This document shows, one piece after another, positions 41,588 through 63,697 of a stretch of 64,000 bases of DNA. The notes under the pieces are model-generated. The model made no database searches, was not told where the DNA came from, and worked only from the letters and a program-made list of their open reading frames with translations. The position numbers were made by a program, and so were the translations under genes. How positions within the stretch are numbered: the stretch's first letter is position 1; the number at the start of each line of letters is the position of its first letter. The stretch spans positions 1,536 to 65,535 of the forward strand of contig JBAWWL010000007.1 of assembly GCA_037146775.1 (NCBI GenBank), in the 5' to 3' direction. This DNA is from Candidatus Omnitrophota bacterium. Its GTDB lineage: Bacteria; Omnitrophota; Gorgyraeia; Duberdicusellales; 4484-171.

Positions 41588-41599
41588 GGAATTGATATT

Positions 41600-46358: not shown

Positions 46359-46866
46359 ATTCGTCTCCTTTTGTCAGTACACATATAGCCATACAATTAG
46401 AGATATAGCAAGGGAAATAGAGAGGTATTTTAAGGGATATTAAGGATAAAAAGAGAGCATAATTAATACCAAATTAGCATTTTTTATAAAAGGTAAATCT
46501 ATAACTATCCAACGTAATACCTCTTTAATCACAAACCGTCTTATTAAGCTAATGCTATTTTTCACACTTGACCAATATCTACTATAGCGGTATTATTCTA
46601 TCTTATTGACTACAGAGGCGTAGTTGATAGATGAGGGTAAAGTGGCATCTGAAAGTACAATTGGGTTATTTTTTCTAAGGCAATTCTCTAGATAGGGGAT
46701 TGCCTTTTTTATTTGAAGGAAAATGAGGGTTTAGCTGGAAACAGTGAATGAATTTTTTGTTTGATTGCAGAAGTTATGTTTTAATGTGGATCTTTAGGGT
46801 TGGTGGACAGCGGAGATTTGATAAATCTGAGATACAAAAATGGACTACTAATAAAGGAATAAAAGA

Positions 46867-49800
46867 ATGAATACCGATCTCACATTTTTTACAAACGAAA
46901 AAGGAGCAACCCTGCTAGACAGGTTCAAAGTAACCCTTGAAAACAATACAAAGTTTTTTGATGTCCTAGTGGGTTATTTTAGAACGAGTGCATTTTTTAG
47001 TTTATATAAGTCGCTTGAAAAAGTTGAAAAAATTAGAATTTTGGTTGGGATTAATGTTGATAAACAAACACAAAATCTATTAGGGCAAGCCAAGGAAGGG
47101 CAGCTTACACTTAAGTTTTCGCATAAAGAAGTAAAAGACGCTTTTGTCGAAGAAGTTAGCAAGGAAATGGAGGAGTCCGAAGATAACTCAGAAATAGAAT
47201 TAGGTGTCTATAAATTTATCGAATTTATAAAATCTGGTAAGCTAGAAATCAGAGCCCATCCTTCGCAGTCTATTCACGCCAAGCTCTATATAATCCGTAA
47301 AGATTCTACAAAAAGTGAAGATTATGGTAGGGTTATAACTGGTTCGAGTAATTTTACCTTCTCTGGTCTCCAGGAAAATATCGAATTTAATGTAGAATTA
47401 AAAGATAGCCGGGATGTGGAATATGCTTTAAAAAAATTTGATACACTTTGGGAACAATCAGTGCCTATCTCTAATGAATACATCGAAGCAATCAATGATA
47501 AGACTTGGCTTAATGACGCAATTAAGCCTTATGAACTTTACCTAAAATTCCTTTACGAATATTTTAAAGATAAAATAAATGAAGATATGGATTCCATTTA
47601 TAAGGATAGAAGATTCTTGCCTGAAGGCTACATGGAGCTTGAGTATCAAGACGAAGCCGTAAAAGATGCTTTAGCTAAATTAGGTGATTACGGTGGAGTT
47701 TTCTTAGCAGACGTTGTCGGCCTAGGAAAAACTTATATTTCAGCTTTACTTGCCCAGCAGCTCGACGGTTATACTCTTATAATTTGTCCACCGGTACTAA
47801 AAAACTATTGGCATGATACCTTCCGAGATTTTGGAGTAAGGGGATTTGAAGTAGAATCTTTGGCCTTGAGCAAAATTGATAGAATAATTGAGGAAGGTCC
47901 TGAAAAGTACAAGAATATTTTCATCGATGAGGCACATCGCTTCCGTAATGAGACAAACCAGACTTATGCAAAGTTAAAACAGCTTTGTTGGGGGAAGCGA
48001 GTTATTTTAGTTTCTGCAACACCATTGAATAATACTCCATTTGATATCCTAAGTCAAATAAAGCTATTTCAAAAGGAACATAATAGTACGGTTCCTAATG
48101 TTCGGGATCTAGGAAGATTCTTCGCTGGACTACACGAGAGATTAAAATCAACTGATCGTAAGAATCTCAAGGAATATTTAGCGATAGTAAAGGAGAATTC
48201 ACAAGCAATTAGAGAGAATGTGCTTAAATATTTGATGGTTAGAAGAACCCGTTCAGAAGTTCTGAAATACTTCAAGAAAGATCTTGATAAGAGAAAGATT
48301 AAGTTTCCTTCAGTGGCTGAGCCCAAGAGGGTCTACTATGAATTTGATAATAATCTAGAAAATGTATTTATTCAAACAATCAAACTCATTAAGACATTTA
48401 AGTATTCCAGGTATATGCCATTCAATTACTTAAAGAATCCAGATGCGGAAGACAGACAGGAACAAGTTTCTCAACGTAACCTTGGTCGTTTCATGAAGAT
48501 ACTATTAGTGAAGCGTCTAGAAAGCAGTTTTTATGCTTTCAACATGACTCTGGACAGGTTCATTAATTCTTACAAGGATTTTATCGATATGCTAAATAAA
48601 GGGAATATTTATATAAGCAAGAAATATAGCGATAAAATTTACGAAGCAATAGGTAATGACACAGAGGATAGTCTAGATGAACTAGTTAATCAGGAGAAAA
48701 TTAAAAAATATAAGAAAGGTGATTTTGCAAATGATTTTCAGAAAGATTTAGAAAGCGATTATAAAATATTATTGGAAATAAAAAAAATGTGGAACAGTGT
48801 AAAAACAGATCCTAAGATAATAAAATTTAAGGCTATACTTAATAATGATAAGATTCTAAAGAATAATAAAATAATTATCTTTACAGAATCTAAGGAAACA
48901 GCAGAATATCTAGATAGAAATTTAAGAGATGTCTTTGGCGATAAGATCATATCTTATTCAAGCAAGTCTGGCTCTACTGTTCGTGATGAAATCACTGCAA
49001 ACTACGACCCTAATTCTAAGATCCACAAGGACAACATAAGAATACTAATTACTACTGATGTACTGGCAGAGGGTGTTAATATGCATCGTTCCAATGTGGT
49101 TATAAATTATGATATTCCTTGGAACCCTACCAAAGTCTTGCAAAGAGTGGGACGTGTTAACAGGATTGGGACTATTCATGACAATATATATGTTTATAAC
49201 TTTTTTCCTACCGTTTATTCAAATAGTGAAATTAAGCTAGAGGAGGCGGCTATTGCAAAAATTCAAGCATTTCATCATACTCTCGGAGAAGATGCGCAAT
49301 ACTTAACCGACGGGGAAGAAATCAGCTCCCATGAGTTGTTTACTAGGCTTAATTCTAAAAAGGTACTCGAAAATGGCGAAGAAGAAGAAAGGGATTCAGA
49401 ACTTCAATATTTATCTGAGATACGTAATGTCCGCGATGCTAACCAACAGTTATATGAAAGAATTAAAAAACTTCCTAAGAAATCACGGAGTGCTAAGTTT
49501 TATAAAGGGGAGAAAGAATCAGGGGTAACATTTTTTAGAAAAGGAAAATTACGTAAAATGTTTATTGCTGACTCTCAAAGTGCAAGAGAATTAAACTTCT
49601 TTGCCGCGGCTCGGTTATTAAAAGCGGAAGCCAGTGATATCAGGGAAAAAATTGCAGCGAGTTTTTATGAATTCATTGTTAAGAACAAAAAAGCATTCAG
49701 CTCGGCCACTGCTGAAGAGGTGAGACAATTTGGGCAACTGGGAGCCGGTAGTAATGAGAAAAAGCTTATTCGATACACAAAGGCAATCAGAAAAACTGCT

Positions 49801-50082
49801 GGATTCACTGATCGAGACGAAGAATATCTAAATAAAATAATAACGATTTTAGAAGATGGAACGCTAGCTAAACAGACAACCAAGGTTTTAATCAAAGAGA
49901 TTGATAAAGAGACTAAAAAAGAAATAAAAAAAGACAAAGTCCCCTTTAATATTTTAAAGAAATTTAAAGAAAAAATTCCAGATACATTTTTTGCCGAATC
50001 TATTTTGAGCAGCCCACATCAGGTTTCTTCCCCGAAGGAAGTTATTCTCTCCGAACTTTTAATTCCCGAAAGAAAAACTTAA
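46867..50082 (+). CDS. PLD-family nuclease (HxK) fused to SNF2-family helicase (DISARM DrmC+DrmD-like fusion)
   Basis: N-terminal HAKLYIIRK...GSSNFT (PLD HKD motif). SNF2 motifs: GLGKTYISA, DEAHRFRN, SATPLNNT, helicase-C ITTDVLAEGVNMHRSNVVINYDIPWNPTKVLQRVGRVNRIG. Confidence 0.8.
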   Translation: MNTDLTFFTNEKGATLLDRFKVTLENNTKFFDVLVGYFRTSAFFSLYKSLEKVEKIRILVGINVDKQTQNLLGQAKEGQLTLKFSHKEVKDAFVEEVSKEMEESEDNSEIELGVYKFIEFIKSGKLEIRAHPSQSIHAKLYIIRKDSTKSEDYGRVITGSSNFTFSGLQENIEFNVELKDSRDVEYALKKFDTLWEQSVPISNEYIEAINDKTWLNDAIKPYELYLKFLYEYFKDKINEDMDSIYKDRRFLPEGYMELEYQDEAVKDALAKLGDYGGVFLADVVGLGKTYISALLAQQLDGYTLIICPPVLKNYWHDTFRDFGVRGFEVESLALSKIDRIIEEGPEKYKNIFIDEAHRFRNETNQTYAKLKQLCWGKRVILVSATPLNNTPFDILSQIKLFQKEHNSTVPNVRDLGRFFAGLHERLKSTDRKNLKEYLAIVKENSQAIRENVLKYLMVRRTRSEVLKYFKKDLDKRKIKFPSVAEPKRVYYEFDNNLENVFIQTIKLIKTFKYSRYMPFNYLKNPDAEDRQEQVSQRNLGRFMKILLVKRLESSFYAFNMTLDRFINSYKDFIDMLNKGNIYISKKYSDKIYEAIGNDTEDSLDELVNQEKIKKYKKGDFANDFQKDLESDYKILLEIKKMWNSVKTDPKIIKFKAILNNDKILKNNKIIIFTESKETAEYLDRNLRDVFGDKIISYSSKSGSTVRDEITANYDPNSKIHKDNIRILITTDVLAEGVNMHRSNVVINYDIPWNPTKVLQRVGRVNRIGTIHDNIYVYNFFPTVYSNSEIKLEEAAIAKIQAFHHTLGEDAQYLTDGEEISSHELFTRLNSKKVLENGEEEERDSELQYLSEIRNVRDANQQLYERIKKLPKKSRSAKFYKGEKESGVTFFRKGKLRKMFIADSQSARELNFFAAARLLKAEASDIREKIAASFYEFIVKNKKAFSSATAEEVRQFGQLGAGSNEKKLIRYTKAIRKTAGFTDRDEEYLNKIITILEDGTLAKQTTKVLIKEIDKETKKEIKKDKVPFNILKKFKEKIPDTFFAESILSSPHQVSSPKEVILSELLIPERKT

Positions 50083-53000
50083 TGAAGAACATAATTAAAC
50101 AATCTTTAGAAGGCAGCTTTAATCTAGATAATTTTAGCCTATTAGTTAAGAATATTTTCAATAAAATTGATATAAACCCACAAGAGATAACAGTATTTAA
50201 TGGTTTCGAAGAGCATATAAAGAGTCTTACTTTTCTAGGAGAATATTGCGATTCTCAAGATAAAAATCTTGATGTTTTAGCTATCGAGTTAATAGGTGAT
50301 ACGAAAATTGAAAGAGCCCGCTCATTTCAGAGGAACATAGTTGCTAAATATCTTAAAAATAATACTAAAGATTCTAGCCTTGTTGCTTTTTATTCCCAAG
50401 GCAACCCCGATTGGCGGCTATCATTCGTAAAACTCGATTATAAGCTTACCGATAAAGGCCCGAGAGCTGAAGTTGGTACACCTGCAAAGCGATATTCATT
50501 TCTTGTAGGAGAAACAGAACCATCACACACAGCTCAAGCTCAGTTACTTCCTATCCTAGAGAAGCAAAAAGAGAATCCGTCAATTTCTGAAATTGAAGAG
50601 GTTTTTAGCGTTGAAAAAGTTACGAAAGAATTTTATGAGAAATACCTAGATCTATTTAAAAGGCTGTCAAGAAACTTAGAAAGAAATAAAGAATTTGAAG
50701 ATATTGCCAATAAAGAACAGATTGATATTGAAAACTTCACGAAAAAACTAATTGGCCAGATAGTTTTCTTATATTTTCTACAGAAAAAAGGGTGGCTAGG
50801 AGTACCCCGTAAAAAATCTTGGGGTGAGGGGGATAAGTTTTTCTTAAGAACCTTATTTGATAAAGCAGAAAAAGAAAAAGGAAACTTTTATAACGATTAC
50901 CTCGAAATCCTCTTTTATGATACATTAAACAATCCTCGTAAAGATAAAGATGAGCCAGAATATTCTACTTATTTTGACTGTAAAATACCTTTCTTAAATG
51001 GCGGACTATTTGGACCAGATTATGATTGGAAGAATACAACGGTGAAACTATCCAATGAGATTTTTGAAGACATCATATCTACGTTCGATATTTATAACTT
51101 TACTGTGAAAGAGGATGACCCACTAGAGAAAGAAATTGCTGTTGATCCAGAAATGCTAGGTAAGGTTTTTGAGAATCTACTTCCGGAAAACCTACGTAAA
51201 GGTAGGGGCGCCTATTATACTCCTAGAGAAATAGTTCACTATATGTGTCAGGAAAGCTTAATTAACCATCTTTCTACTGAAACAAAGGTGGATATTGAAA
51301 AAGTCAGAAAATTAGTCAATTTAAGCGATTCAGGAATATCTAAAAATGAAGCAGAATCAATTGATAAGGCAATTTCCAGCATAAAGGTCTGCGATCCGGC
51401 TTGTGGCTCTGGTGCATTTCTTGTAGGCATGCTTCACGAAATAGTGAATACGCGTCACAACCTAACTAATCTCCTGAATTTAGAAGGTAAAGATTTAAAA
51501 GAAAGGGGCGAATACAACCTAAAGAAGCAAGCGATAGAAAATTGTATATATGGGGTTGATATAGACCCTGGAGCCGTGGATATTGCTAAGCTCAGGCTTT
51601 GGCTTAGCCTAGTTGTAGATTACGATGAAGAAGTTATTAAACCATTGCCTAATCTTGACTATAGAATAATGTGTGGTAACAGTCTATTAGAGGAATTTGA
51701 AGGTGTTAGATTCTATGATGGTAGTAATGGAAATGGAGAGAAATCTTTGTTTAAAGATGAGCGGAAGGAAAAGATAGAAGAGCTAAGAAGAAAAACGAAA
51801 GAATATTTTAATATTTTTGATGATGAAGAAAAACACAATAAAAGTAAAGAAATTAATAAACTCAAAGATTGGTTTATAAGGACAACTTTAGAAAAGAGAA
51901 GAAAGAAAATTACTCTTCAGCGTAAGAAAATAGAAGCCAATGTAAATATGTTTAACAGTGAAAGCCAGAAAGAATATTTTGTGAATCAAAAGCATATATT
52001 TATTTCAGAAGCAAAAATCAATGAGGTTTTACAAAATTTGCATAATCCACAAAAGGCGCGGCCATTCTTTATTTGGAAGCTAGAATTTATGGATGTTTTT
52101 GAGGAAAAAGGTGGGTTTGATGTGATAATGGCAAATCCGCCGTATGGGATAATTTTCAAAGATGATCTTAAGGAAGAATACGAAGGTAAATACAATACAT
52201 TTTTGAGGAATAACGATATTTATGTTGCATTTATTGAACGCGGAATAGATCTAATACAAAACAATGGCATGATAACATACATAACGCCGAATACTTACCA
52301 AAATGGAGATTATTTTATCAAATTAAGAAACTTTATGATTTCGAATTTAAAAATTTTTGAAATTCTTGATTTTAAAAATATTCCAGTTTTTGACGATCCG
52401 ACGGTTTTTGTGTCAATTTTTAATGCACAAAAAAATAACTCAGGGTCTTCTATAATTCCCCTGGGAATAGTAATAAGTTATAAAGAAAGGATGGAGCGCG
52501 TTCTTTCACTTATCAGAATTGACAAAGGGGATAAAAATTTATTTTTTAAACCTCAAAATCAAATTATTCAAAAATTCATTAAGGACTGCTCAATAGAAGA
52601 ATTTGACAAAGTATTTTATATAAAAGATGTTGGTTTCAATTACTGGACAGTAGGAAAGGGTAAAAAGAGAGATGGCAATTCTATCGGAGACAGGATTTTT
52701 TACGCAGGTAAAAGACTCAGTGAATCAGACATCCCATTTCTTAAAGGTAGGAATATTGATAGGTTTTTCATACAAGAACCAGATAATTATTTGAGACATA
52801 ATTATAAAGACTTCCTTAATTCTAAATTTGACGTTTTTAGATTTTCCAAAGAATTTCTTGAAATTTCACCTAAAATAATTTATAGACAAACTTCCGCAGA
52901 TATTAAGGCAACAATTGATCATGGTAAGAACTATCTGGATAAAACTGTTCATTTGATTGTGTTACGTGATATTAATTTAAAAATTAATTTAAAATATGTT

Positions 53001-53321
53001 TTAAGTTTACTTAATTCGAAATTATTCCAATATCTATACGCTTATATCTCGCAAGAAAGCTATGGGAGGACATTCGCACAAGTCAAAACTACATATATAA
53101 AGAAGCTGCCCTTTAAAAAAATATCCGAGGACGAGCAAATCTCTTTTGTTAAGCTTGTTGATAGGATTCTTTCTGTCACGAAGGATGAAGACTACTTAAC
53201 TAATTCTGTTAAGCAAGCAAAAGTCAAAGAATACGAACACCAGATTAACCAGATGGTCTATAAACTTTACGGACTTACCAAAGAAGAAATTGAAGTCGTT
53301 GAAAGTTTTAATAAAAAATAA
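50082..53321 (+). CDS. Large N6-adenine DNA methyltransferase, Eco57I/PglX/DrmMI-like
   Basis: GAYYTPREIVHYM (motif X/I region). CDPACGSGAFL (FxGxG SAM site). IMANPPYG (NPPY catalytic motif). 1079 aa. Start overlaps the upstream stop (TAATG). Confidence 0.8.
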   Translation: MKNIIKQSLEGSFNLDNFSLLVKNIFNKIDINPQEITVFNGFEEHIKSLTFLGEYCDSQDKNLDVLAIELIGDTKIERARSFQRNIVAKYLKNNTKDSSLVAFYSQGNPDWRLSFVKLDYKLTDKGPRAEVGTPAKRYSFLVGETEPSHTAQAQLLPILEKQKENPSISEIEEVFSVEKVTKEFYEKYLDLFKRLSRNLERNKEFEDIANKEQIDIENFTKKLIGQIVFLYFLQKKGWLGVPRKKSWGEGDKFFLRTLFDKAEKEKGNFYNDYLEILFYDTLNNPRKDKDEPEYSTYFDCKIPFLNGGLFGPDYDWKNTTVKLSNEIFEDIISTFDIYNFTVKEDDPLEKEIAVDPEMLGKVFENLLPENLRKGRGAYYTPREIVHYMCQESLINHLSTETKVDIEKVRKLVNLSDSGISKNEAESIDKAISSIKVCDPACGSGAFLVGMLHEIVNTRHNLTNLLNLEGKDLKERGEYNLKKQAIENCIYGVDIDPGAVDIAKLRLWLSLVVDYDEEVIKPLPNLDYRIMCGNSLLEEFEGVRFYDGSNGNGEKSLFKDERKEKIEELRRKTKEYFNIFDDEEKHNKSKEINKLKDWFIRTTLEKRRKKITLQRKKIEANVNMFNSESQKEYFVNQKHIFISEAKINEVLQNLHNPQKARPFFIWKLEFMDVFEEKGGFDVIMANPPYGIIFKDDLKEEYEGKYNTFLRNNDIYVAFIERGIDLIQNNGMITYITPNTYQNGDYFIKLRNFMISNLKIFEILDFKNIPVFDDPTVFVSIFNAQKNNSGSSIIPLGIVISYKERMERVLSLIRIDKGDKNLFFKPQNQIIQKFIKDCSIEEFDKVFYIKDVGFNYWTVGKGKKRDGNSIGDRIFYAGKRLSESDIPFLKGRNIDRFFIQEPDNYLRHNYKDFLNSKFDVFRFSKEFLEISPKIIYRQTSADIKATIDHGKNYLDKTVHLIVLRDINLKINLKYVLSLLNSKLFQYLYAYISQESYGRTFAQVKTTYIKKLPFKKISEDEQISFVKLVDRILSVTKDEDYLTNSVKQAKVKEYEHQINQMVYKLYGLTKEEIEVVESFNKK

Positions 53322-53335
53322 CTTAAGAAATTATA

Positions 53336-54265
53336 GTGGTAATTAAACATAAAATTGAGCCACAATCTGAAGCAAAGCCTTTTTTGAAATGGGCTGGGGG
53401 AAAAACAAGATTACTTAAATATTTCAGGGAATATTACCCTAGAAATATTGGAAGAGAATTCAAAAGATACAGTGAGCCTTTTGTTGGTAGCGGAGCTGTT
53501 TTTTTTGATTTGGTATCCCAAGGTGCGCTAAAGGGTAAGGAGGTAGTATTAGCTGATTCTAGCAATTATTTGATTAATTGTTATAAGCAATTGCAAAAAA
53601 GTACCTGGCTAGAAGTATTGCGCCAATTAAATAGACTAACTAAACAATGGCAGGATAACGAATCGTATAGTAAAAATAAAGATGAATATAACGAATTAAT
53701 CGAGGATGATCGTTCTGGTAGACGAGTTGATCTTATTCGCTGCGCAGCTTTGTTTATTTTTCTAAATAAGACTTGTTTCAATGGGGTTTACCGGGTTAAT
53801 AGTAAAGGTTATTTTAATGTACCAAAAGGCAAATATGCTGAAGTTCCAGTTTTTAAAAGAGGAGCCCTTGAGGCAATCCATTCGGCGTTAAGGGGTGTTA
53901 AACTAATGAGCGGTCCGTATAAACAAATTATTGAAGGTATAAAGGTAACTAGAAATGATTTCTTGTATATGGACCCTCCTTACATAAAATTAAGTAAAAC
54001 ATCAAGTTTTACTGGTTATCAACAAGAACCCTTTGGAATGGATGAGCAGAAGGAATTAGCCGAATATTGCGTAGAACTTCAGAAGAAAGGTTGTTATTCG
54101 TTAATAAGTAACCATTGGGTAGAATGTATTAAAGAATTATACCCTAAAGATTATTTCAAATATAAAACTTTTTCAGTTTCAAGATGTATTAATTCAATTG
54201 CCGAAAGAAGAGGTAATCTAACAGAAGAAGTTTTAATCATCTCTAAAGAAAAAGAGACAAACTAA
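53336..54265 (+). CDS. Dam-family (D12 class) N6-adenine DNA methyltransferase
   Basis: FLKWAGGKTRLL N-terminal motif. FVGSGAVFFDL (SAM). LYMDPPYI (DPPY). Confidence 0.75.
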   Translation: MVIKHKIEPQSEAKPFLKWAGGKTRLLKYFREYYPRNIGREFKRYSEPFVGSGAVFFDLVSQGALKGKEVVLADSSNYLINCYKQLQKSTWLEVLRQLNRLTKQWQDNESYSKNKDEYNELIEDDRSGRRVDLIRCAALFIFLNKTCFNGVYRVNSKGYFNVPKGKYAEVPVFKRGALEAIHSALRGVKLMSGPYKQIIEGIKVTRNDFLYMDPPYIKLSKTSSFTGYQQEPFGMDEQKELAEYCVELQKKGCYSLISNHWVECIKELYPKDYFKYKTFSVSRCINSIAERRGNLTEEVLIISKEKETN

Positions 54266-54266
54266 A

Positions 54267-54809
54267 ATGAAGAAGAACATAGATTTTCTTAATTATGGTA
54301 CGGTTAAACATATTAAAGACTTGCTTAGAAGGGTTGATGAAGGAAAAGAGCCATACGCCCAAGGGGTTTGCTATCCGCAGGCTGATGATGTTGAGAAGGT
54401 CAATAGGCTTGTGATCAGTATTTTTAATGGTCAGACTAGCAAGGAAGATTTAGGCAGAATATTAAATGTTACCTTAAGGCAGGTTGATTACTATGGTAAT
54501 GCAGCAGTTTATCTCGGTTTCTTGCAGACAAACCGAGGACAATTTCAGCTTACTGAATTGGGGAAAAAGTTTGCTCAATATGATAAAAAACAAAGAGAAA
54601 ATTTGCTTATTGAGCAGTTTTTTAAAATTCCTAGTATAAGGAAAGTTTTCAGACAGTTACTTCCCTTGACGCTTGATATTAATTTAGTGATGGATTCTAT
54701 GGCTAGGGCACAAGTAAACCTAAACACAAAGAAAATGCAACGTAGAAGGGCACAAACTATCCACGCTTGGGTTAATTGGGCTTTAGAAAACATGGAAAAG
54801 ACAATTTAA
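54267..54809 (+). CDS. Hypothetical 180-aa protein in the methyltransferase-helicase operon
   Basis: No nuclease or HTH motif confidently recognised. 1-nt gap after the Dam gene. Confidence 0.35.
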   Translation: MKKNIDFLNYGTVKHIKDLLRRVDEGKEPYAQGVCYPQADDVEKVNRLVISIFNGQTSKEDLGRILNVTLRQVDYYGNAAVYLGFLQTNRGQFQLTELGKKFAQYDKKQRENLLIEQFFKIPSIRKVFRQLLPLTLDINLVMDSMARAQVNLNTKKMQRRRAQTIHAWVNWALENMEKTI

Positions 54810-54817
54810 CATATATG

Positions 54818-56743: not shown

Positions 56744-56762
56744 CTAACAAAGGATCGAATTT

Positions 56763-59700
56763 ATGAATGATATTCGTGCAAAAATAATTGAGCATATTAA
56801 CCAGAAGCTTTTTCAAGAAGTTACTGGTAGAAATATAGACAGATTGATATGGCAAGATAGGTTTGATGAAAAATTCTTTATCGGCTTGCTTTCAGCCGGA
56901 AGCACAGAGCATGAAGAATTTCAAACTCGTGCTCGGACAAAGCAGATAGGTATCGATATATTATTAAAAAAGGAAGAAGTTGAAAAAATAAAATTAACCT
57001 ATTCTGTAAGTGGCTCATTTTTTTATAGAGTTTTTCCTAGTCTTACCGAGCAAAGAGAATTTTACGTTAAAAAGTTTAATGAGAACTTTTCGCAACAGAT
57101 TGATTCCTGGAATGATTTAACCTATTTTCTTCAGAATAATCCCTCCTTCAAACCAATCAAGTGTGATGTTGCTCCAGTTTTTTGTAAGATTAAGCTTGTA
57201 GATGAACCAATTGAATATAGGTTAGCAGGTAAAGAGCTTGATTCACATTTGAATGTAAAGAGCGATGCGCACAGGGAGTTTGTTTTGAATATGGCAAATA
57301 GTAGCACTGACTATTATTATATTATTCGCGAAGAAGTAGAATTAAAAGATTTAAATAGCAAAGATAAATGGCAAGAGTTTATTAGAAATAACAAAAGCGA
57401 TAGAATGCCTTTACAGTGGGACTTTGATTATAACATCAAAGAAATTGATTATGATAAAGATAGAATGCGTATTTCTTTTACTTGGTCGAATATGGCGCAG
57501 GTGGAAACAAGAAATGGCAAATTAGTATATGATGGAATTAGGGTGAATGAGATATTTGATTGTAAGATTAAGTTAAAAGTTGATGGCGGCGAGCCTTGTA
57601 GGTTTACGATGAAGGGCTTCGCAGAAGATTATAAATACGACCGTACTATAAAAGCAATAGGAAAGAATTGTTTCATCGAGGAAAATAATGTTAACGGTAA
57701 TATTCTTGAGACGAATCCGTGCCCTGTGTATGAACAGTACAGGTTAAAAGTAAGGCGTTTTGGCTTAATTCCAACTTTTGAGGGGTTTTCTAAAGAACCT
57801 TTGCCTATTCTTGATTCTATTGCTTCGGAAATGGATAAGTACATTGAAAATTTTGATATTGAAGTAAAAGAGTTTTTTGCACATAAAGGTTTGGATATGC
57901 AAGAAAAGAAGACGCAGCTAGATTACGAGAAGGCAGATTTTTCTAGAGAAAGAGAAAGATTCAAAAAAGGTATTAGTATTTTAAAAAACTGTCCGGACGT
58001 TCTGCAAGCATTCAGACTAATGAATAAAAGTTTTCTAAATAGTAGCATTAACTTTAATTCTTGGCATTTATTTCAGATAGTATTCATTGTGTCTTTGCTT
58101 CCAGATTTCGCGAAGAATAAGTATAGTGAAATAGAGGGTGATAGCTTAGACAAGGTTGATTTATTATATTTTCCAACCGGTGGTGGAAAAACAGAGGCTT
58201 TCTTGGGGTTAATAATTTTTAATCTGTTTTTTGATCGCCTTAGAGGGAAAAAATTAGGTGTTACCGCTTTAGTTAAATATCCATTAAGGCTTTTGTCTAT
58301 TCAACAGATGCAAAGAATCGCTGATATAGTAGCTTCTGCAGAAAAGATACGAAGAGAGGAGGAGAACTTAAAGGATAGCGAAGGCTTTGCGGTTGGATAT
58401 TTTGTAGGAGAAAGTAATACTCCTAATAAGATAGACAAGAAAGAGTCCCAAAATTTAGTTAAAATGAGTCAAGATAACTTAACGAAACAGTACCTCATTC
58501 TCGACAAGTGTCCTTTTTGTCAGAAAAAAGGTATGATAATTAAGTATCTTGAGCAAAACAATCGACTAGCACATTTTTGTCCCAATTGTGATGAGGGCTT
58601 ATTACCGATCTATATTGTTGATAGAGAAATATATAGATATTTGCCTTCAGTTGTAGTAAGTACGATTGATAAATATGCTGGAGTTGGTAATCAGAGAAAT
58701 TTCAGAAACATTCTAGGCTGCGTATCTGCAAGATGTTCTCTGCATGGGTTTACCAGCCAACTTGAATGTACGGAAAAGGGTTTTGCTGGGGTTTGCACTT
58801 TATCAAAAGACAAGTTAGAAAAAGTTAATTATCAGAATTTATCTCCCACTCTCTTAGTTCAAGATGAGTTACATCTTTTATCGGAATCATTAGGGATATT
58901 TGATTCTCATTATGAGACGTTTATTAAGTATTTCATTGAGCATTTAATGAGTAGTACGAGTAAGCTTAAAATTATTGCTGCAACAGCTACAATTTCACAT
59001 TATAAGAATCAAATAAAGCATTTATATATGCAAGATGCTATTCGTTTTCCAACCCCATCTCCAAATCCAAATAAGTCTTTTTATTATATGGTTGACTATA
59101 ATGAATTAAATAGAGTATTTATCGGCATCGCTCCTGTAGGCATAACCCCTAAGACTGCCGTTTATAAGATTGTTGAACTTTTACGTAATTATATTTTTGA
59201 ATATTATGATAGCCCAGTAAAATTAAATAATGAATTAAAGCTAAAGCTGAGCGATTCAGAGATTAAAGAAATTCTTCGTGATTACTGGACTATATTGGAA
59301 TATAACCAGAAGAAAAGTGACACATTAAATATTTGTGATACCCTTGGTAAAACAGTAAATCCGAAGCTTAAGGAGCAAGCTAGGTTTAATATTGAGAACT
59401 TAACTGGAGATAAGAAGTTAGAAGAGGTACGACAAATAATTTCAGATATAGAAAATCCTAATAATCCATTACCAAGCCCGGATTTTCTTGCGGCGACCAG
59501 CATGATATCTCACGGAGTCGATATTGATATCTTTAATATTATGGTACTCTATGGTGTTCCTCAGACCATAGGTGAGTATATTCAGGCTACGAGCCGTGTT
59601 GGGAGGCAACATCCTGCTTTTGTCTTCTGCATATTTATAGTTAATAGGGAAAAAGATAGAAGCTATTATAAATATTTCAAGCAATTCAACGAGTGTAAAG

Positions 59701-62003
59701 ATATTCTTATTGAACCAGTTCCGATTAATAGGTGGGTAAACAATGCTGTCGACAGGACTCTTCCAGGTATATTTTTCGCATTAATGCTTCTTTACTATGA
59801 TTTCAAAATTCAGAATGAGCATGGTTCTAATATTTATTTAACCGGTGGATTTCGTGATGCAGTAAAAAATGGCTGGTTGGCTAGCTCTGACAATATAGCC
59901 GATATGGTTATTCAATCTTATTTAGCTTATGGGCCATCAGGAGAATTATTTCGAGAGAAGATAAAAGTCAAAGTGAAAGACATTTACGATAAGCTAAGTA
60001 ATTGGTCGTTAAGCAAGAGAGACTTTATCGCTACGGCTCTTGATGGATATCATCCTATGCGCAGCTTGCGAGATACAGATATTCAGATAGAGATCGAGCA
60101 TCCGCAGCTAAATAAAACAATGAGTCGGGGAGTTATGCAGTTGTTGTATAGACACTTTCCTTGTACCTGGTTGTATTTTGATAAAGGTAGATTAGAGCAA
60201 GAAGTTTCTTTTATTGATTTCTGGGATAGCCGTGAAATACCAGTCGCAAATTTAAATAAGAAACGGTTATTAAAAAGAGTAGAAAAGTATATAAGTGGTT
60301 TTGGTAATAGAAAGAACATCAATATTCCTTTAAATGAGAATGAATATTTAGTATTACAACCAATAAGAGCTCATGCAGTTACAAAAGCAGAAACGTATTT
60401 CTGCACCAATAATAAGTGCAATAAAGTATTTAAAAAACATGCTTTAATTAATGGAAATTGCCCAGATTGTCATCGTAGAGCTAGCCAAATGCCGCTAGTA
60501 TATGCATGTGATTGTGGCTGGACAGGTCCAGTAGAGGTTATGGGTTGTAGACAGCATGGCTTGCAGGATATGAGATTTCGTGACGGCAGGTATGATACTA
60601 GGAGTTGGATTTGTAAAATAGATAACCAAGCCGTTAATGTAAGAACACGTTGCCCGGAGTGTCAGAAGGTTCCCCTATATCCTAAGAATATCGGAGATGC
60701 TTCTATTTCTATACCTAGAACTGTAACAATGATTGATCTTGTTGAGTCTGATAAGGAGAAATCACTTGAGCATCCAAATGGGGTCCCCCTCATATATGCT
60801 ACATGGCTAGGTAAAGTTTCAATTTCAGAAGCCGCAGACTTATTTAGGAGCATTCTGAATCCATTGCCAGAACAGGAAGATTTAGCTAAGAAGATGGAGG
60901 AAGAAGTTAAACAAAATATGGAAAATCTGGGAGTTGACGAGAACTTAGCCAGAAGGATTGCGGAGAAATATCTTAAGGGTAGCCGTGATATTACCGGTAG
61001 ATTAAATGAAATTAATAACTGGATTTCAGATAAAATCGTTAATCTATCTGAAGATGCTAAAAGAATAAATGCAACTAGCATTCTTGAGTTTGAGACAATA
61101 AATTCTTTAAAAGAAGCGCGGGATCTTAGCACTATTTCTGAATTTAACAAGCAGCTTTTATCCCAAGAGAATTTACAGGATTATAAGAGCATTGCAAACA
61201 AATACGGATTTATTAGCGTAAAAGCTTGTTCTAACGTTCCTATGGTGTATTGCAATTATGGATACTCAAGAAATGAATTTGAAATGGGCGGTTCAACAAC
61301 ATTATTAGGTTTTCCTCCTGATAGAGAAGTAAAGGCTAGATTTCCCGGAAAGAAGAATATTTATGCCCAAAAATATAATACAGAAGGTATAGTTTTTGAG
61401 CTTGATAGGGCACGAATATTATTCTGGTTGCTTAAAAACAAAATAGTTGATAGGGTTACTAATAATTTACCCGGAAATTTAAATAACGAAGAAGAAGCGA
61501 AACTATGGTTTATAAACAACTTAAGGCAGGATTTACTTTCTCCATTCAAACCTATTAAAGTAATAGATCATAAAATTACCTATTATGTGCATACCCTAAC
61601 CCATACACTTTCACACATGCTCATAAAAAATGCCGAAGCCTTGTTGGGGTTAGATAAAAATTCTTTAGGCGAGTATTCATTTTTAACTGTTCCCAGTTTC
61701 TTAATATATTCACATGACATGCACGATTTTCCGCTAGGAGCATTCTTTAATTTATTTGCGAACTCTTTCCAGGCGTGGCTTGAGAATTCGTTTGAGGCTA
61801 GTTCGTCTTGCATAAACGATCCAATATGTATCGAACATTTAACTAAAGAGCCTGGAGATGAAACAGCTTCGTGTTTCGATTGTCTTCACCTCAATGAAAT
61901 ATCTTGCCAGTATATGAATTATAATTTAGATAGAAAATTGTTAACTGGTAAGGTAAAAGAAGATAAACATATTTTCTTCGGTTATTGGGAGAATCTGGAG
62001 TAA
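56763..62003 (+). CDS. 1746-aa SF2 (DExH) helicase with multiple zinc ribbons and DUF1998-like 4-Cys C-terminus (DrmA+DrmB / DruE / MrfA-like)
   Basis: Motif I YFPTGGGKTEAFL. Motif II LVQDELHLL. Motif VI QATSRVGRQ. Cys clusters CPFCQ...CPNC, CTNNKCN...CPDCH, CDCGW, CPECQ. C-terminal SCINDPIC...SCFDC...C. Confidence 0.7.
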   Translation: MNDIRAKIIEHINQKLFQEVTGRNIDRLIWQDRFDEKFFIGLLSAGSTEHEEFQTRARTKQIGIDILLKKEEVEKIKLTYSVSGSFFYRVFPSLTEQREFYVKKFNENFSQQIDSWNDLTYFLQNNPSFKPIKCDVAPVFCKIKLVDEPIEYRLAGKELDSHLNVKSDAHREFVLNMANSSTDYYYIIREEVELKDLNSKDKWQEFIRNNKSDRMPLQWDFDYNIKEIDYDKDRMRISFTWSNMAQVETRNGKLVYDGIRVNEIFDCKIKLKVDGGEPCRFTMKGFAEDYKYDRTIKAIGKNCFIEENNVNGNILETNPCPVYEQYRLKVRRFGLIPTFEGFSKEPLPILDSIASEMDKYIENFDIEVKEFFAHKGLDMQEKKTQLDYEKADFSRERERFKKGISILKNCPDVLQAFRLMNKSFLNSSINFNSWHLFQIVFIVSLLPDFAKNKYSEIEGDSLDKVDLLYFPTGGGKTEAFLGLIIFNLFFDRLRGKKLGVTALVKYPLRLLSIQQMQRIADIVASAEKIRREEENLKDSEGFAVGYFVGESNTPNKIDKKESQNLVKMSQDNLTKQYLILDKCPFCQKKGMIIKYLEQNNRLAHFCPNCDEGLLPIYIVDREIYRYLPSVVVSTIDKYAGVGNQRNFRNILGCVSARCSLHGFTSQLECTEKGFAGVCTLSKDKLEKVNYQNLSPTLLVQDELHLLSESLGIFDSHYETFIKYFIEHLMSSTSKLKIIAATATISHYKNQIKHLYMQDAIRFPTPSPNPNKSFYYMVDYNELNRVFIGIAPVGITPKTAVYKIVELLRNYIFEYYDSPVKLNNELKLKLSDSEIKEILRDYWTILEYNQKKSDTLNICDTLGKTVNPKLKEQARFNIENLTGDKKLEEVRQIISDIENPNNPLPSPDFLAATSMISHGVDIDIFNIMVLYGVPQTIGEYIQATSRVGRQHPAFVFCIFIVNREKDRSYYKYFKQFNECKDILIEPVPINRWVNNAVDRTLPGIFFALMLLYYDFKIQNEHGSNIYLTGGFRDAVKNGWLASSDNIADMVIQSYLAYGPSGELFREKIKVKVKDIYDKLSNWSLSKRDFIATALDGYHPMRSLRDTDIQIEIEHPQLNKTMSRGVMQLLYRHFPCTWLYFDKGRLEQEVSFIDFWDSREIPVANLNKKRLLKRVEKYISGFGNRKNINIPLNENEYLVLQPIRAHAVTKAETYFCTNNKCNKVFKKHALINGNCPDCHRRASQMPLVYACDCGWTGPVEVMGCRQHGLQDMRFRDGRYDTRSWICKIDNQAVNVRTRCPECQKVPLYPKNIGDASISIPRTVTMIDLVESDKEKSLEHPNGVPLIYATWLGKVSISEAADLFRSILNPLPEQEDLAKKMEEEVKQNMENLGVDENLARRIAEKYLKGSRDITGRLNEINNWISDKIVNLSEDAKRINATSILEFETINSLKEARDLSTISEFNKQLLSQENLQDYKSIANKYGFISVKACSNVPMVYCNYGYSRNEFEMGGSTTLLGFPPDREVKARFPGKKNIYAQKYNTEGIVFELDRARILFWLLKNKIVDRVTNNLPGNLNNEEEAKLWFINNLRQDLLSPFKPIKVIDHKITYYVHTLTHTLSHMLIKNAEALLGLDKNSLGEYSFLTVPSFLIYSHDMHDFPLGAFFNLFANSFQAWLENSFEASSSCINDPICIEHLTKEPGDETASCFDCLHLNEISCQYMNYNLDRKLLTGKVKEDKHIFFGYWENLE

Positions 62004-62011
62004 GGTTAATT

Positions 62012-63697
62012 ATGGCGAAAATGATTCCCGAAAGCTTAACTTATTATAATTTTACTGAATCGGAAAAGTTAGTTTTTGATTCTTTGCGTACCCTAGGAGA
62101 AAATTTTACAGTTTTTTATTCTGTTCCTTGGCAAAAGAAAACCAATTTGGGTAACTTTAGATTCAATGGTGAGTGCGATTTTATAATCGAACATAAGGAT
62201 AAAGGATTTATATCCCTAGAAGTTAAGGGCGGTAAGGATATTAAAATAGAGAATAACATTTGGTACCTATATTTTAGTGAACGAGAACGACTAGACAGTG
62301 ATGAATATTTAGAAAATACTAATCAATTTATCAGGCGATTAAGGCAAAGTCCATTAGCTCAGTCACGGGATTCCATGTATTTCTTCGTTGATCATTTCAA
62401 GGAAAAATACGGAAGAGATTTCTCGGGGTTATTTGGGCATGCTGCTTGTTTCCCTAACTTTCGAATTAAGGATGACCTTGGGCCTGAAGCGCCAAAACAG
62501 ATTATTATTGATGCAAGCGGCATGATTAATATCGAGAAAAGAATTAATGAAATTTTTACTTATTACGAACATGATAGGAAGGGGCGATATATAGATAAAG
62601 ATCATTACGACTTTATTAATATAATTAGACTTAGGCGACACTATTCTATAACTAAAGGTAGCTTGATTAGAAATAGAAGCGATATCTTCGAGTCGATAAA
62701 CCATACTCAAGATTTATATTTAGAAATGATTGGAGAATATAAAGATGCTCTTATAACGGGTGGAGCTGGTACAGGAAAAACCTTTTGTGCTATTAAAAAA
62801 ACTAAACAATTAGCTAGCCAAGGGAAAAGAGTACTATTCATATGTTTTAATAAAAATCTTGCGGAGCATATAAAAGTTAATTATTTTTATAACATACATA
62901 ATGTCGATTGTTATAACTTTCATGAATTTATAAAGCTTTCGATAGGTTTAGACTTTTATAAAAAAATTTTCTTAGAGAGCAATAATAGATTTAACGGGCT
63001 TTTAAACCAGCTTCAAAATTCGCTCGAACGACTACCAAAATTCGATGCAATTATAGTAGACGAAGGACAGGATTTTGAAGAAGAGTGGTTTAAGTGTTTG
63101 AGTTTATTTGCGAAGGATGTACAAAACAAGATATTTTATGTTTTCTATGATAAAAATCAAGACATCTTTCAGGGGAATATTAGTCGGATATTAAAACTAT
63201 TTAATTATCCGCCTTTTCATTTGATTGAAAATCTTAGAAATTGTTCAGAAATTCAGAAGTGGGTTGTTGAAAAAACTGGTTTCGGTCATGATGTCATGCC
63301 CAACAAAATAGAAGGGGTGGAGCCGATAATATTTGAAGTAAAAAGTTTCGAACAAGTAAGTAGTGTTTTAAGTTCACTTTTTGACTCTCTTATCAAAAAT
63401 GAACTTATTGAGAATCACCAACTGATAATACTTTCTGATAGAAAACTGGAGAATAGTATTTTAAAAGAAAATAGACGAGTTGGTAACTATAGAATAATCG
63501 ATAGCATAATTGTTTGCGATCCCAACCCCGCCAATATTAGATTTGCTACTGTTCAGTCTTTTAAGGGGCTGGAATCCGATGTGGTTATCTATTTACAGCA
63601 CGATAATATTGAGCAAGGAAATAATAATATGCTTAAATATGTTGCATATACTAGAGCCCGGTTCATTCTTTATATTTTTAAATGTTTTATTTCTTAA
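62012..63697 (+). CDS. NERD domain + UvrD/Rep-like SF1 helicase (paralogue of 54818 gene)
   Basis: NERD: GECDFIIEHKDKGFISLEVKGGKDIKIENNIWY. Walker A ITGGAGTGKTF. Motif II IIVDEGQDFEEEW. GGAG RBS before the ATG at 62012. Confidence 0.6.
   Translation: MAKMIPESLTYYNFTESEKLVFDSLRTLGENFTVFYSVPWQKKTNLGNFRFNGECDFIIEHKDKGFISLEVKGGKDIKIENNIWYLYFSERERLDSDEYLENTNQFIRRLRQSPLAQSRDSMYFFVDHFKEKYGRDFSGLFGHAACFPNFRIKDDLGPEAPKQIIIDASGMINIEKRINEIFTYYEHDRKGRYIDKDHYDFINIIRLRRHYSITKGSLIRNRSDIFESINHTQDLYLEMIGEYKDALITGGAGTGKTFCAIKKTKQLASQGKRVLFICFNKNLAEHIKVNYFYNIHNVDCYNFHEFIKLSIGLDFYKKIFLESNNRFNGLLNQLQNSLERLPKFDAIIVDEGQDFEEEWFKCLSLFAKDVQNKIFYVFYDKNQDIFQGNISRILKLFNYPPFHLIENLRNCSEIQKWVVEKTGFGHDVMPNKIEGVEPIIFEVKSFEQVSSVLSSLFDSLIKNELIENHQLIILSDRKLENSILKENRRVGNYRIIDSIIVCDPNPANIRFATVQSFKGLESDVVIYLQHDNIEQGNNNMLKYVAYTRARFILYIFKCFIS

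Follow-up and report, generated by a model that had tools for sequence, protein, structure and literature searches.

Seven co-directional genes in a 64,000-nt stretch of a Candidatus Omnitrophota contig (hereafter the window; Table 1) probably form a co-transcribed, modification-linked anti-phage or anti-plasmid operon composed of three separable modules. Judged by sequence, the genes are a mosaic in which a widespread nuclease-helicase/methylase pair (module A) is joined to a rare fused DISARM-like cassette (module C), with a Dam-linked pair (module B) between them. Gene content, motifs and co-conservation patterns were read directly from the window and the sampled loci. From analogy with known systems we infer a defence function of the operon; module A beside the cassette appears to be a recruited or stacked RM-like pair.

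Table 1 Features of the operon and its flanks (window positions; genes after the ORF list, w5 and w7 with both possible starts)
Feature	Position	Strand	Length	Module	Assignment
Promoter match	46568-46596	+			putative, sigma-70-like (consensus scan)
Hairpin upstream of w1	46677-46706	+	13 bp		with T-run (consensus scan)
w1	46867-50082	+	1071 aa	A	N-terminal single-HKD PLD nuclease fused to SNF2-type SF2 translocase
w2	50082-53321	+	1079 aa	A	PglX/Eco57I-type gamma-class N6-adenine DNA methyltransferase, TaqI_C specificity domain
w3	53336-54265	+	309 aa	B	Dam-family (D12 class) N6-adenine DNA methyltransferase
w4	54267-54809	+	180 aa	B	DUF7226, small all-alpha protein, central winged helix
w5 (Hel1)	54776/54815-56743	+	642 aa	C	UvrD/GajB-like SF1 helicase
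w6	56763-62003	+	1746 aa	C	DrmA::DrmB fusion
w7 (Hel2)	61985/62012-63697	+	561 aa	C	N-terminal NERD (PD-(D/E)xK) nuclease fused to SF1 helicase
Eighth ORF	63751-64000, running past window end	+			53 nt 3' of w7

As the first-pass annotation had described, the nuclease, helicase and methylase genes are tightly packed on one strand. With the conserved starts MAIIIP for Hel1 (54815) and MAKMIP for Hel2 (62012) in place of the TTG starts of the ORF list, the gaps from w1 to w7 are -1 (TAATG), 14, 1, 5, 19 and 8 nt, and a scan of the seven-gene stretch found no strong + strand terminator. The GC content is 0.32-0.36 in all seven genes compared to about 0.41-0.43 upstream; ORFs of 1071-1746 aa in DNA of 33 % GC, each with significant homologues, are not chance products. 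The hairpin lies 160 nt ahead of the first ATG of the operon, and the leader region (46300-46900) has no Rfam match. The eighth ORF is preceded by a GGGGGG ribosome-binding site and is called as a gene of 89 aa, its full length, in the identical Logan contig L001; it has no Pfam match.

The operon resides in a defence island (DarTG, TIR proteins, a DUF4011 helicase-nuclease) and is adjoined by serine recombinases, both in line with the earlier description. The tRNA hotspot proposed there was not recovered: dnaX, recR and a response regulator separate the nearest tRNA gene, tRNA-Ser at 22547, from the island. Such an island also suits a reading in which an RM-like HKD-SNF2/methyltransferase pair, a Dam-linked element and a DISARM-like cassette were compacted into one transcript as two or three defence systems that are independent of each other and do not interact functionally. 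Independent systems usually have their own promoters and larger spacers, whereas the junctions here measure at most 14 nt save one of 19 nt. Pure stacking is considered unlikely.

The w1 protein carries the Pfam domains PLDc_2, SNF2-rel_dom and Helicase_C, and its H137, K139, GSSN159-162, GLGKT285-289 and DEAH354-357 are invariant among 22 homologues. In PADLOC it matches 'HKD+Snf2' (C3a139) over nearly its full length with 160 bits and DrmD partially with 137 bits; the NCBIfam DrmD model gives 156 bits at a cut-off of 610. The w2 protein comprises Eco57I (127 bits), TaqI_C and MmeI_Mtase domains (Pfam) and scores 531 bits with REase_MTase_IIG and 121 bits with DrmMI (PADLOC). It remains below the cut-off of the NCBIfam PglX models, and its PDB sequence matches are limited to methyltransferase cores (the N-terminal part of w2 measures ~400 aa). 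By score, w1 and w2 are not orthologues of DrmD and DrmMI; HmaA of PADLOC matches w1/w2 only partially (86 bits).

Relatives of w1 are numerous (> 7900 at E<=1e-20; the best 120 listed share 52-74 % identity), and a w2-type gene directly follows the w1 homologue in 17 of ~20 other sampled loci. DrmA or DrmB occurs in none of the ~20 other sampled loci with this pair; DrmAB, Hel1 and Hel2 are likewise absent from 14 viral-contig relatives and from the w1 relative that is nearest (73 % identity) among those whose neighbourhood was sampled. The methyltransferase gene of module A relatives is followed by an AriA/PtuA-like ATPase (L088), PDC-S06 (686 bits; L091) or NYN (L086). Unrelated defence genes in this slot suggest an insertion hotspot, which favours stacking, as does the separate conservation of the modules. 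Module A is best described as an RM-like pair which is autonomous elsewhere and lies here directly upstream of the rest.

In module B, w3 clearly exceeds the threshold of TIGR00571 'dam' (219.8 bits, cut-off 114.85) and scores 170 bits with Pfam MethyltransfD12. The 180-aa gene w4, listed before as an unknown, exists as annotated and belongs to Pfam DUF7226 (PF23871, 76 bits). Its AlphaFold2 model (pLDDT 89) matched winged-helix domains only in Foldseek (E>=0.016), with no nuclease fold among the matches. DUF7226 is found next to a D12 methyltransferase in L093-L097, and the Dam/DUF7226 pair recurs in two further lineages, the Dam genes adjoining DUF7226 in L093/L094 and L097 being 31-33 % identical to w3. 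These neighbourhoods point to w4 as a conserved partner of the Dam methyltransferase. A link to module C is seen in L002, which encodes a fused DrmAB (39 % identity), Hel1, Hel2 and, placed after Hel2, a Dam 33 % identical to w3, compared to 34-39 % for the remaining cassette components; the Dam appears to have diverged in step with the cassette. Directly 5' of Hel1, L003 and L004 retain a C-terminal DUF7226 remnant (78 % identical to w4), and in L003 remnants of DUF7226 and Hel2 lie on either side of an 88 %-identical cassette. Module B may therefore be a self-marking and DNA-binding pair which moves together with the fused DrmAB sub-lineage.

The central protein of module C, w6, consists of a YprA-family SF2 helicase (aa 1-~1115) and an OB-CON-DUF1998 module (aa ~1119-1746). 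PADLOC assigns DrmA (533.5 bits, aa 198-1112) and DrmB (147.8 bits, aa 1464-1743), and split DrmA and DrmB homologues cover aa 5-1111 and 1119-1743, respectively. The helicase motifs GGGKT473 and DELH701 are present, together with Cys clusters (CxxC) at 583/586/606/609 and 1214/1219/1233/1236 and a C-terminal 4-Cys cluster (1683/1689/1704/1707), 39 aa past which the protein ends. Only 3-4 of the best 150 representative clusters carry the fusion, which makes w6 a rare DrmA::DrmB form. Pfam and PADLOC thus bear out both fusions of the first-pass annotation, PLD with SNF2 and DrmA with DrmB. Its proposed relation to Druantia DruE finds no counterpart: only the DrmA and DrmB models match w6, with no DruE or Dpd match among the PADLOC models.

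The YprA family also contains repair helicases such as MrfA, serine recombinases adjoin the locus and some related loci lie on IMG/VR contigs, all of which would fit a DNA repair, recombination or mobile-element maintenance module (MrfAB/YprA-like) on an integrative element. Among PDB chains, however, w6 matches Serratia DrmA (E=9e-53) and DrmB (E=2e-5) and not MrfA. The consistent company of methyltransferases and nucleases in defence islands and the patchy distribution, consistent with horizontal transfer, argue in the same direction, and a non-immune role is very improbable.

Both flanking helicases resemble GajB in PADLOC, and neither matches the Nhi model. Hel1 comprises UvrD-helicase and AAA_12 domains (Pfam) with invariant AGSGKS and DEIQD motifs; its PADLOC match C3a187 is confined to aa 207-643, and the DrmE model does not match it. 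The N-terminal domain of Hel1 (~200 aa) aligns in register with the NERD of Hel2 (hhalign, E=0.0086) and has no conserved D/E/K among 62 homologues; it may be a degenerate NERD-like domain devoid of conserved catalytic residues. Hel2 matches RTasNERD-Hel of PADLOC over its full length (200 bits), all of 44 homologues share its NERD residues E54, D56, E70 and K72 (numbered from 62012), and its orthologue in L007 scores above the threshold of Pfam NERD (33.2 bits versus 22.1). An intact NERD motif is thus demonstrable in Hel2 only, which is the predicted effector of module C. The earlier domain calls were mostly right (PLD/SNF2, Eco57I/TaqI_C, Dam and the SF1 helicases), except for the two NERD-helicase paralogues: no catalytically intact NERD is detectable in the first.

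The cassette Hel1-DrmA-DrmB-Hel2 is present in roughly 50 genomes of several phyla. Among the 49 Hel1 loci whose downstream sequence is long enough, DrmA follows in the same order in 47, DrmB in 46 and Hel2 in 41. The carriers are Bacillota, Desulfovibrio, Spirochaetales, Thermoguttaceae, Bacteroidota and Omnitrophota, a patchy distribution with pairwise identities of 27-40 % to the window proteins. DrmC and DrmE are absent from the cassette, and methylases are not its usual neighbours, which are GHKL ATPases, a FapA-like protein and a radical-SAM enzyme. Most members of the clade lack a recognisable methyltransferase; methylation dependence may therefore not belong to the core. In a rough neighbour-joining tree with two canonical outgroups only, the Hel1-linked DrmAs group apart from these haloarchaeal class 2 DrmAs, whose loci contain DrmE and PLD and neither Hel1 nor Hel2. 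The searchable literature yielded no description of the cassette, which is apparently an undescribed DISARM-like helicase cassette.

The first-pass annotation regarded the seven genes as one candidate defence system and named the neighbourhood comparison beforehand as its refuting condition. The genes are not co-conserved: module A occurs without DrmAB in ~20 loci and the cassette without module A in about 50. Linkage of A and C is confined to this locus among those sampled, and functional coupling between them may be absent. One obligate system, a fused and expanded class 1 DISARM, would read PLD-SNF2 as DrmD plus DrmC, w2 as DrmMI, Dam as the extra methylase and the SF1 helicases as new essential subunits. 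Every class 1 domain is indeed present, as had been noted (SNF2, N6A methyltransferase, DrmA, DrmB, PLD), the first four in canonical order; the w2-w3 junction (14 nt) lacks a terminator, the GC content is uniform, and in L063 (Neobacillus), too, Hel1-DrmA-DrmB is preceded by a DrmD-type SNF2 helicase. This exact completion of the DISARM complement speaks against pure stacking, as do class 1 DISARM and ARMADA, where pairs of SNF2 and a PglX-type methyltransferase are known to cooperate with YprA-family helicases. However, the combination was found in none of the other sampled loci, the w1 relatives described above lack module C, L002 has neither SNF2 nor the large methyltransferase, and w1 and w2 do not score as DrmD and DrmMI. 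A single obligate system is accordingly judged distinctly unlikely. In L003, the closest relative, both ends are truncated, so that the history of the A-C junction is not legible from it, a point against the composite reading.

For the preferred composite operon, a mechanism can be modelled by analogy on Serratia DrmAB, which shows autoinhibition, loading at 5' overhangs and a methylation-sensitive ATPase (PMC9142583). Both methyltransferases would mark host DNA at two motifs, and DrmAB would load where incoming or replicating DNA has 5' single-stranded ends, while methylation would damp the translocation that its ATPase drives. Unmarked DNA would then be degraded by the nucleases of Hel2 (NERD) and of the SNF2 protein (HKD), with Hel1 assisting as a helicase or sensor that is itself non-catalytic. 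The same analogy suggests methylation dependence, complex formation and A-C cross-talk. In the clade of module C, the DrmAB core lies between two SF1 helicases, in place of DrmE and DrmC.

Among named systems, class 1 DISARM consists of drmD, drmMI, drmA, drmB and drmC, as in Serratia sp. SCBI (Ofir 2018; Aparicio-Maldonado 2021; Bravo 2022), and is sometimes joined by an extra methyltransferase (10.1101/2021.12.28.474362). The operon shares five domain types with it, four of them in the same order, matches its solved DrmA and DrmB and has Dam as second methylase. It differs in the DrmA-DrmB fusion, in the PLD forming the N-terminus of the SNF2 protein in the absence of a DrmC gene, in two extra SF1 helicases around DrmAB, one with a NERD nuclease, in a methylase which is Dam (not C5) with a DUF7226 partner, and in an SNF2/methyltransferase pair that is not co-conserved with DrmAB. 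All NCBIfam DISARM models stay below their cut-offs, and HMM searches returned no complete canonical system, as the earlier annotation had held. Class 2 DISARM (drmE, drmA, drmB, drmC, drmMII), e.g. on a Halomicrobium urmianum plasmid (L098), has a DrmA/DrmB core of about 28-35 % identity, approximately as near as the remoter members of the Hel1-linked clade, and an analogous four-gene layout (X, DrmA, DrmB, nuclease). Here, Hel1 stands upstream in place of DrmE and the NERD-SF1 protein Hel2 downstream in place of the PLD nuclease DrmC, and the C5 methylase is absent.

ARMADA type II comprises ArmA (SNF2), ArmB (PglX-like methyltransferase), ArmC (YprA helicase) and ArmD (GajB-like helicase) (Bell et al. 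2025 preprint). Its order, SNF2, PglX-like methyltransferase, single-chain YprA-family helicase with fused DUF1998 and last a UvrD/GajB-like SF1 helicase that bears a nuclease or toxin domain at its N-terminus, resembles the operon and would also favour one integrated system. However, w6 falls on the DISARM-like side of the family (DrmA/DrmB matches only) and has no C-terminal Vsr nuclease, the last helicase has NERD instead of RelE, and Dam, DUF7226 and Hel1 are additional. Type-2 BREX-related ('BR', formerly Hma-like) systems, proposed to contain an RM-like effector and marker pair (NAR 2026, PMC12839542), likewise combine an SNF2 helicase with N-terminal HKD endonuclease and an N6-adenine methyltransferase, but their DUF499 ATPase and DUF3780 protein are absent from the window and the sampled w1/w2 relatives. 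Hel1 and Hel2 are SF1 UvrD-like helicases like Gabija GajB and Nhi, and Hel2 joins a PD-(D/E)xK nuclease and an SF1 helicase in one chain; unlike those systems, Hel1 and Hel2 have no GajA partner and sit within a DrmAB cassette.

The seven open reading frames of the first-pass annotation were all recovered at the same positions on the + strand, and they form a real, tightly packed operon (w1 to w7 in order). With the starts that are kept among homologues (those of w5 and w7 are listed in the table), successive genes from w1 to w7 are separated by −1 (TAATG), 14, 1, 5, 19 and 8 nt. The GC content is 0.32-0.36 in each of the seven genes compared with about 0.41-0.43 upstream, and a consensus scan revealed no convincing + strand terminator inside the block, which is probably co-transcribed. 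The sole strong hairpin with a T-run is located in the 500-nt operon leader, 3' of a promoter-like site; it may represent a small RNA, an attenuator or the remnant of a terminator. An Rfam search of the 5' leader gave no match.

Features of the window and of loci sampled in other contigs and genomes
Feature	Coordinates	Strand	Remarks
RtcB RNA ligase gene	15641-18613		split by intein (Pfam Intein_splicing + RtcB, 990 aa)
tRNA-Ser	22547		followed by dnaX, recR, response regulator
Large serine recombinase	26281-27894	−
NrS-1-type primase-polymerase	29574-31967		in GC-rich segment (0.46-0.49)
Upstream defence genes as a whole, with an 1867-aa DUF4011/AAA_11/AAA_12/MTES_1575 helicase-nuclease	33655-43542		upstream defence genes
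DarT	39412-40029		upstream defence gene
Macro-domain DarG-like protein	40001-41152		upstream defence gene
TIR-domain proteins (two)	41600-42181, 42562-43542		upstream defence genes
Large serine recombinase	44290-45921	−	adjoins DUF2924 gene (44290-46358 region)
Promoter-like site	46568-46596
Leader hairpin	46677-46706		13 bp, terminator-like
Seven-gene operon	46867-63697	+
Start of w5 (Hel1)	54815	+	MAIIIP
Start of w7 (Hel2)	62012	+	MAKMIP
Eighth small ORF	from 63751		continues past window end
Contig identical to the window's own, 3' of operon	L001:16989-22615		89-aa ORF, 120-aa ORF, DUF8426 protein, chaperone-like pair
Closest cassette relative (DrmAB 88% identical)	L003:2267-2482, 9692-9742		broken inside DUF7226 and Hel2; then Hypoth_Ymh gene
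DUF6339 module, Ureibacillus	L006:4141-7693		three genes ending in DUF6339 protein, beside DrmAB-type locus
DUF6339 module, Halomicrobium plasmid	L098:17348-20977		as above
Eight-gene operon (also L008-L061, L180)	L007:5224-20477		highly conserved; ~650-aa radical-SAM enzyme
Neobacillus sp. Marseille-Q6967 locus	L063:2144-17292		DrmD-type SNF2 helicase, TmtA-like protein, Hel1, DrmA, DrmB
Hyphomicrobiales MAG, three-gene cluster	L079:2766-11191		PglX/IIG-like methyltransferase, HKD-SNF2, NERD+UvrD helicase; without DrmAB
DUF7226 locus (L093/L094)	L093:1-3046		DUF7226 directly 3' of SNF2-type helicase C-terminus; convergent with and overlapping Dam-type methyltransferase
DUF7226 locus	L097:181-3627		DUF7226 directly 3' of Mrr-like protein; convergent with and overlapping Dam-type methyltransferase

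The 1746-aa protein w6 consists of DrmA and DrmB in one chain, in line with the fusion of a helicase with a DUF1998 domain that had been proposed. Its DrmA part (aa 198-1112) reaches 533.5 bits with PADLOC PDLC02576 and matches Serratia DrmA (7s9v_A, E=9e-53), and its DrmB part scores 147.8 bits with PADLOC and carries the four-Cys motif C1683/C1689/C1704/C1707. Furthermore, GGGKT and DELH motifs, internal CxxC clusters and the terminal four cysteines are present. The DrmB module is in frame with DrmA, and where the two are split, the homologues cover aa 5-1111 and 1119-1743 of w6. In the PDB, w6 matches only DrmA and DrmB of Serratia, and no DruE or Dpd model of PADLOC matches it. Since its score with NCBIfam DISARM_DrmAS (372.6 bits) is below the cut-off of 950, the DrmA part is placed in a divergent clade. 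When the junction-spanning half of w6 was used in an exhaustive HMMER search, just 3-4 of the 150 best representative clusters turned out to be fused; on the tree, the fusion appears to have at least two origins.

Two NERD::UvrD-like helicases had been suggested to bracket this protein; a NERD domain could be demonstrated in w7 (Hel2) but not in w5 (Hel1). w7 is a NERD nuclease joined to an SF1 helicase, with E54, D56, E70 and K72 kept in 44/44 homologues; a w7 orthologue passes the Pfam threshold for NERD, and the comparison with phage genomes gave one weak match. w5 is a UvrD/GajB-like SF1 helicase whose N-terminal domain has neither a Pfam match nor conserved acidic or lysine (catalytic) residues among 62 homologues, and an intact NERD nuclease was therefore rejected. 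The same domain shows a weak, in-register profile match to the NERD domain of Hel2 (hhalign, E=0.0086).

Outside the window, these three genes recur together. Hel1 was found directly 5' of DrmA(B) in every neighbourhood of a w6 relative, and a Hel1-anchored scan (one genome per species, loci annotated by phmmer) revealed DrmA in 47, DrmB in 46 and Hel2 in 41 of the 49 loci that extend far enough downstream, with a constant gene order. The loci belong to Bacillota, Desulfovibrio, Spirochaetales, Thermoguttaceae, Bacteroidota and Tenericutes. The cassette is usually accompanied by two GHKL ATPases, a FapA-like protein and a radical-SAM enzyme, and none of these proteins has a match in PADLOC 2.0. 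An operon of the L007 type, in the order GHKL ATPase, Hel1, FapA-like, DrmA, DrmB, NERD-Hel2, radical-SAM, GHKL ATPase, occurs frequently in Clostridia of gut and rumen and also in other phyla. It has no evident methyltransferase and may represent a DISARM-like system in which self is marked other than by methylation.

Other loci vary the companions. In L063 the DrmD-type SNF2 helicase (354 bits with PADLOC DrmD) neighbours a 1500-aa Tiamat TmtA-like/sacsin-GHKL protein, and methyltransferase and Hel2 are absent, so that the locus is a further hybrid of the cassette. The Ureibacillus variant L006 has a DUF6339 triplet; the DUF6339 module may be a recurrent companion system. L002, a fused DrmAB with 39% identity, consists of Hel1-DrmAB-Hel2-Dam and no other genes. 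A rough neighbour-joining tree separates DrmAs that are linked to Hel1 from those of haloarchaeal class 2 DISARM. A literature search yielded no paper on a DrmA/B pair flanked by UvrD/NERD helicases or accompanied by radical-SAM/GHKL proteins.

The third gene, w3, had been called a Dam-type methyltransferase, and with 219.8 bits it lies above the trusted cut-off of TIGR00571 (114.85) for this family. w4 is a DUF7226 protein; in a confident model (pLDDT 89) it is all-alpha, has a winged helix at its centre and shows no nuclease fold. Foldseek returned generic winged-helix matches only (E>=0.016), and no specific function is assignable. In each of two further independent lineages DUF7226 adjoins a methyltransferase of the Dam type, and the two genes could by themselves constitute a small restriction-like module linked to Dam. 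In L003/L004, where the cassette is 88% identical, Hel1 is preceded by a C-terminal remnant of DUF7226, and DrmAB is followed by the 17 initial codons of Hel2. These broken ends suggest that the module boundaries have recently recombined or decayed.

The first gene, w1, is the proposed PLD::SNF2 fusion: a single-HKD PLD nuclease joined to an SNF2 ATPase, with H137, K139, GSSN, GLGKT and DEAH invariant in 22 homologues. More than 7900 of 8000 scored candidates are related at E<=1e-20, the best 120 listed being 52-74% identical. w2 combines an N6A methyltransferase of the Eco57I/PglX type with a TaqI_C specificity domain, and its match to PADLOC REase_MTase_IIG (531 bits) takes in aa 2-402. The N-terminus has no Pfam MmeI_N match and no PDB sequence match, a canonical D...ExK motif is not conserved in five homologues, and an AlphaFold2 model of aa 1-410, computed from the single sequence without homologues, has a pLDDT of 37, which is too low for a reading of the fold. 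In type IIG restriction-modification enzymes a PD-(D/E)xK nuclease precedes methyltransferase and TRD in one chain; the first ~400 residues of w2 match 'type IIG' profiles and can at most be called a putative nuclease.

Neighbourhoods of w1 relatives were obtained by exact-protein look-ups and an IMG/VR scan, giving roughly 20 other loci (L079, L086-L092, L100-L114). A w2-like methyltransferase lies directly 3' of the w1 homologue in 17 of them; the three most distant loci have the two genes in reverse order or with a single gene between them. DrmA/B and Hel2 are absent from all of these loci, and so is Hel1, save for the NERD+UvrD gene of L079, a distant Hel1-like relative. The slot 3' of the methyltransferase is occupied by unrelated defence genes (AriA/PtuA-like ATPase, PDC-S06, NYN). 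The full-length NERD+UvrD helicase of L079 matches PADLOC C3a187 with 206 bits; C3a139 and C3a187 are accessory families of type III CRISPR and belong to no named system (PMC6546367). L079 suggests that NERD-UvrD helicases have joined HKD-SNF2/methyltransferase pairs on independent occasions.

A single co-conserved unit of seven genes can thus not be upheld, as w1-w2 occur without DrmAB in about 20 other loci and the cassette occurs without w1-w2 elsewhere. The operon is a mosaic of w1-w2, w3-w4 and w5-w7, of which the latter two are ancestrally linked in this sub-lineage; among the sampled loci, w1-w2 are joined to them in the window alone. w1-w2 may be coupled to w5-w7: the 14-nt junction, the domain set of class 1 DISARM in canonical order and the parallel in ARMADA type II speak for it, the missing co-conservation against it.

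The expected serine-recombinase island is present with two large recombinases, and together with the GC-rich segment these suggest nested or adjacent integrative elements. A repeat search found no att-like pair at the junction of recombinase and operon, only short repeats at chance level. In contrast, a tRNA hotspot is unsupported because dnaX, recR and a response regulator follow the tRNA-Ser. In L001 the chaperone-like pair, in a defence-island setting, consists of a 659-aa Hsp70 and, beside it, a 661-aa protein whose C-terminus is GrpE-like.

For Serratia DrmAB, autoinhibition by a trigger loop, loading on 5' single-stranded overhangs and a lower ATPase on methylated DNA have been described (PMC9142583). 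By analogy, the fused DrmAB would act as sensor and motor. Hel2 would be the likeliest effector, in the place of DrmC, because its NERD site is strictly conserved, and Hel1 could serve as sensor or scaffold since its N-domain looks like an inactivated nuclease-like domain. Dam (w3) and w2 would each contribute a motif to the marking of self DNA, w4 with its winged helix might read or target this mark, and w1 would be a second nuclease-translocase.

A tentative reading, to which we give slightly less than an even chance, is that Hel1-DrmA-DrmB-Hel2 constitutes an unnamed, phylogenetically broad DISARM-like class in which two SF1 helicases, one with an active NERD domain, replace DrmC and DrmE, and in which a core is combined with interchangeable modules. 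The latter would include Dam + DUF7226, HKD-SNF2 + PglX-type methylase, and DrmD + Tiamat-like GHKL protein; the commonest, GHKL ATPases + FapA-like + radical-SAM, might install a non-methyl DNA mark. If this is true, the window is a natural experiment in which two methylation systems and two nuclease-helicases are connected to one DISARM-like sensor. DrmC, the candidate nuclease of DISARM for the destruction of invading DNA, is dispensable in both characterised classes (10.1101/2021.12.28.474362), and the activity of DrmAB by itself is limited to sensing and translocation on ssDNA. A sister clade with helicase-nuclease partners and a strictly conserved NERD site would offer a direct test of whether DrmAB is a generic sensor/loader for interchangeable effectors. 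Moreover, the window shows that the SNF2 + PglX-type pair, an architecture common to class 1 DISARM and ARMADA and loosely to BREX/BR, is joinable to a third, independent YprA-family lineage, and the radical-SAM/GHKL version is widespread in gut Clostridia.

Compared with the DISARM core, w6 shares DrmA (SF2, Helicase_C), as a divergent clade. However, drmB is a separate gene beside drmA in DISARM and fused here, and the DrmC PLD gene that follows drmB is replaced by a NERD-SF1 helicase; the only PLD domain of the window is the N-terminus of w1 (NCBIfam DrmC_I 19.6 bits, cut-off 133). As in class 1, an SNF2 protein and an N6A methyltransferase precede the core. Assignment of w1 and w2 as orthologues of DrmD and DrmMI was rejected owing to low scores (w1 156 bits with DrmD, cut-off 610; w2 121 bits with DrmMI against 531 for the type IIG model) and because their relatives never stand beside DrmAB in about 20 other sampled loci. 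The suggested likeness to class 1 therefore stands for the complete domain set and its canonical order, but not for w1/w2 orthology or a DrmC gene. All scores with NCBIfam DISARM models are far below cut-off, and none of the seven proteins matches a model of DrmE or the C5 methyltransferase DrmMII; for comparison, the genuine DrmE of L098 reaches 1624 bits with this library. Class 2 DISARM of haloarchaeal plasmids has DrmE and PLD without Hel1/Hel2, and with 28-35% identity it is about as distant in sequence as remote members of the Hel1-linked clade.

ARMADA type II was rejected since w6 matches DrmA/DrmB models and no DruE, an indirect placement outside the ARMADA/Druantia clade of YprA helicases, and since w6 stops 39 aa past the DUF1998 cysteines, with no C-terminal Vsr-type nuclease. 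In addition, the last helicase differs, as w7 begins with a NERD domain whose D-ExK motif is conserved. The supposed relation to Druantia (DruE with DruA-D or DruH) was not borne out, as no PADLOC Druantia model matches any of the seven proteins at E<=1e-3. Type-2 BR (Hma-like) shares HKD-SNF2 and an N6 methyltransferase, but DUF499 and DUF3780 are absent from the operon and from the neighbourhoods of the sampled relatives. The locus is thus outside DISARM class 1 and class 2, ARMADA, Druantia and Type-2 BR. DISARM has been described as the branch with helicase and DUF1998 consistently split, next to 'many uncharacterized DISARM-like classes' (Bell et al. 2025), and the Hel1-DrmAB-Hel2 cassette appears to be one such class, with the window as a rare fused member. 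With function predicted from homology and context, the locus is best described as a new DISARM-like variant combined with an RM-like HKD-SNF2/methylase pair.
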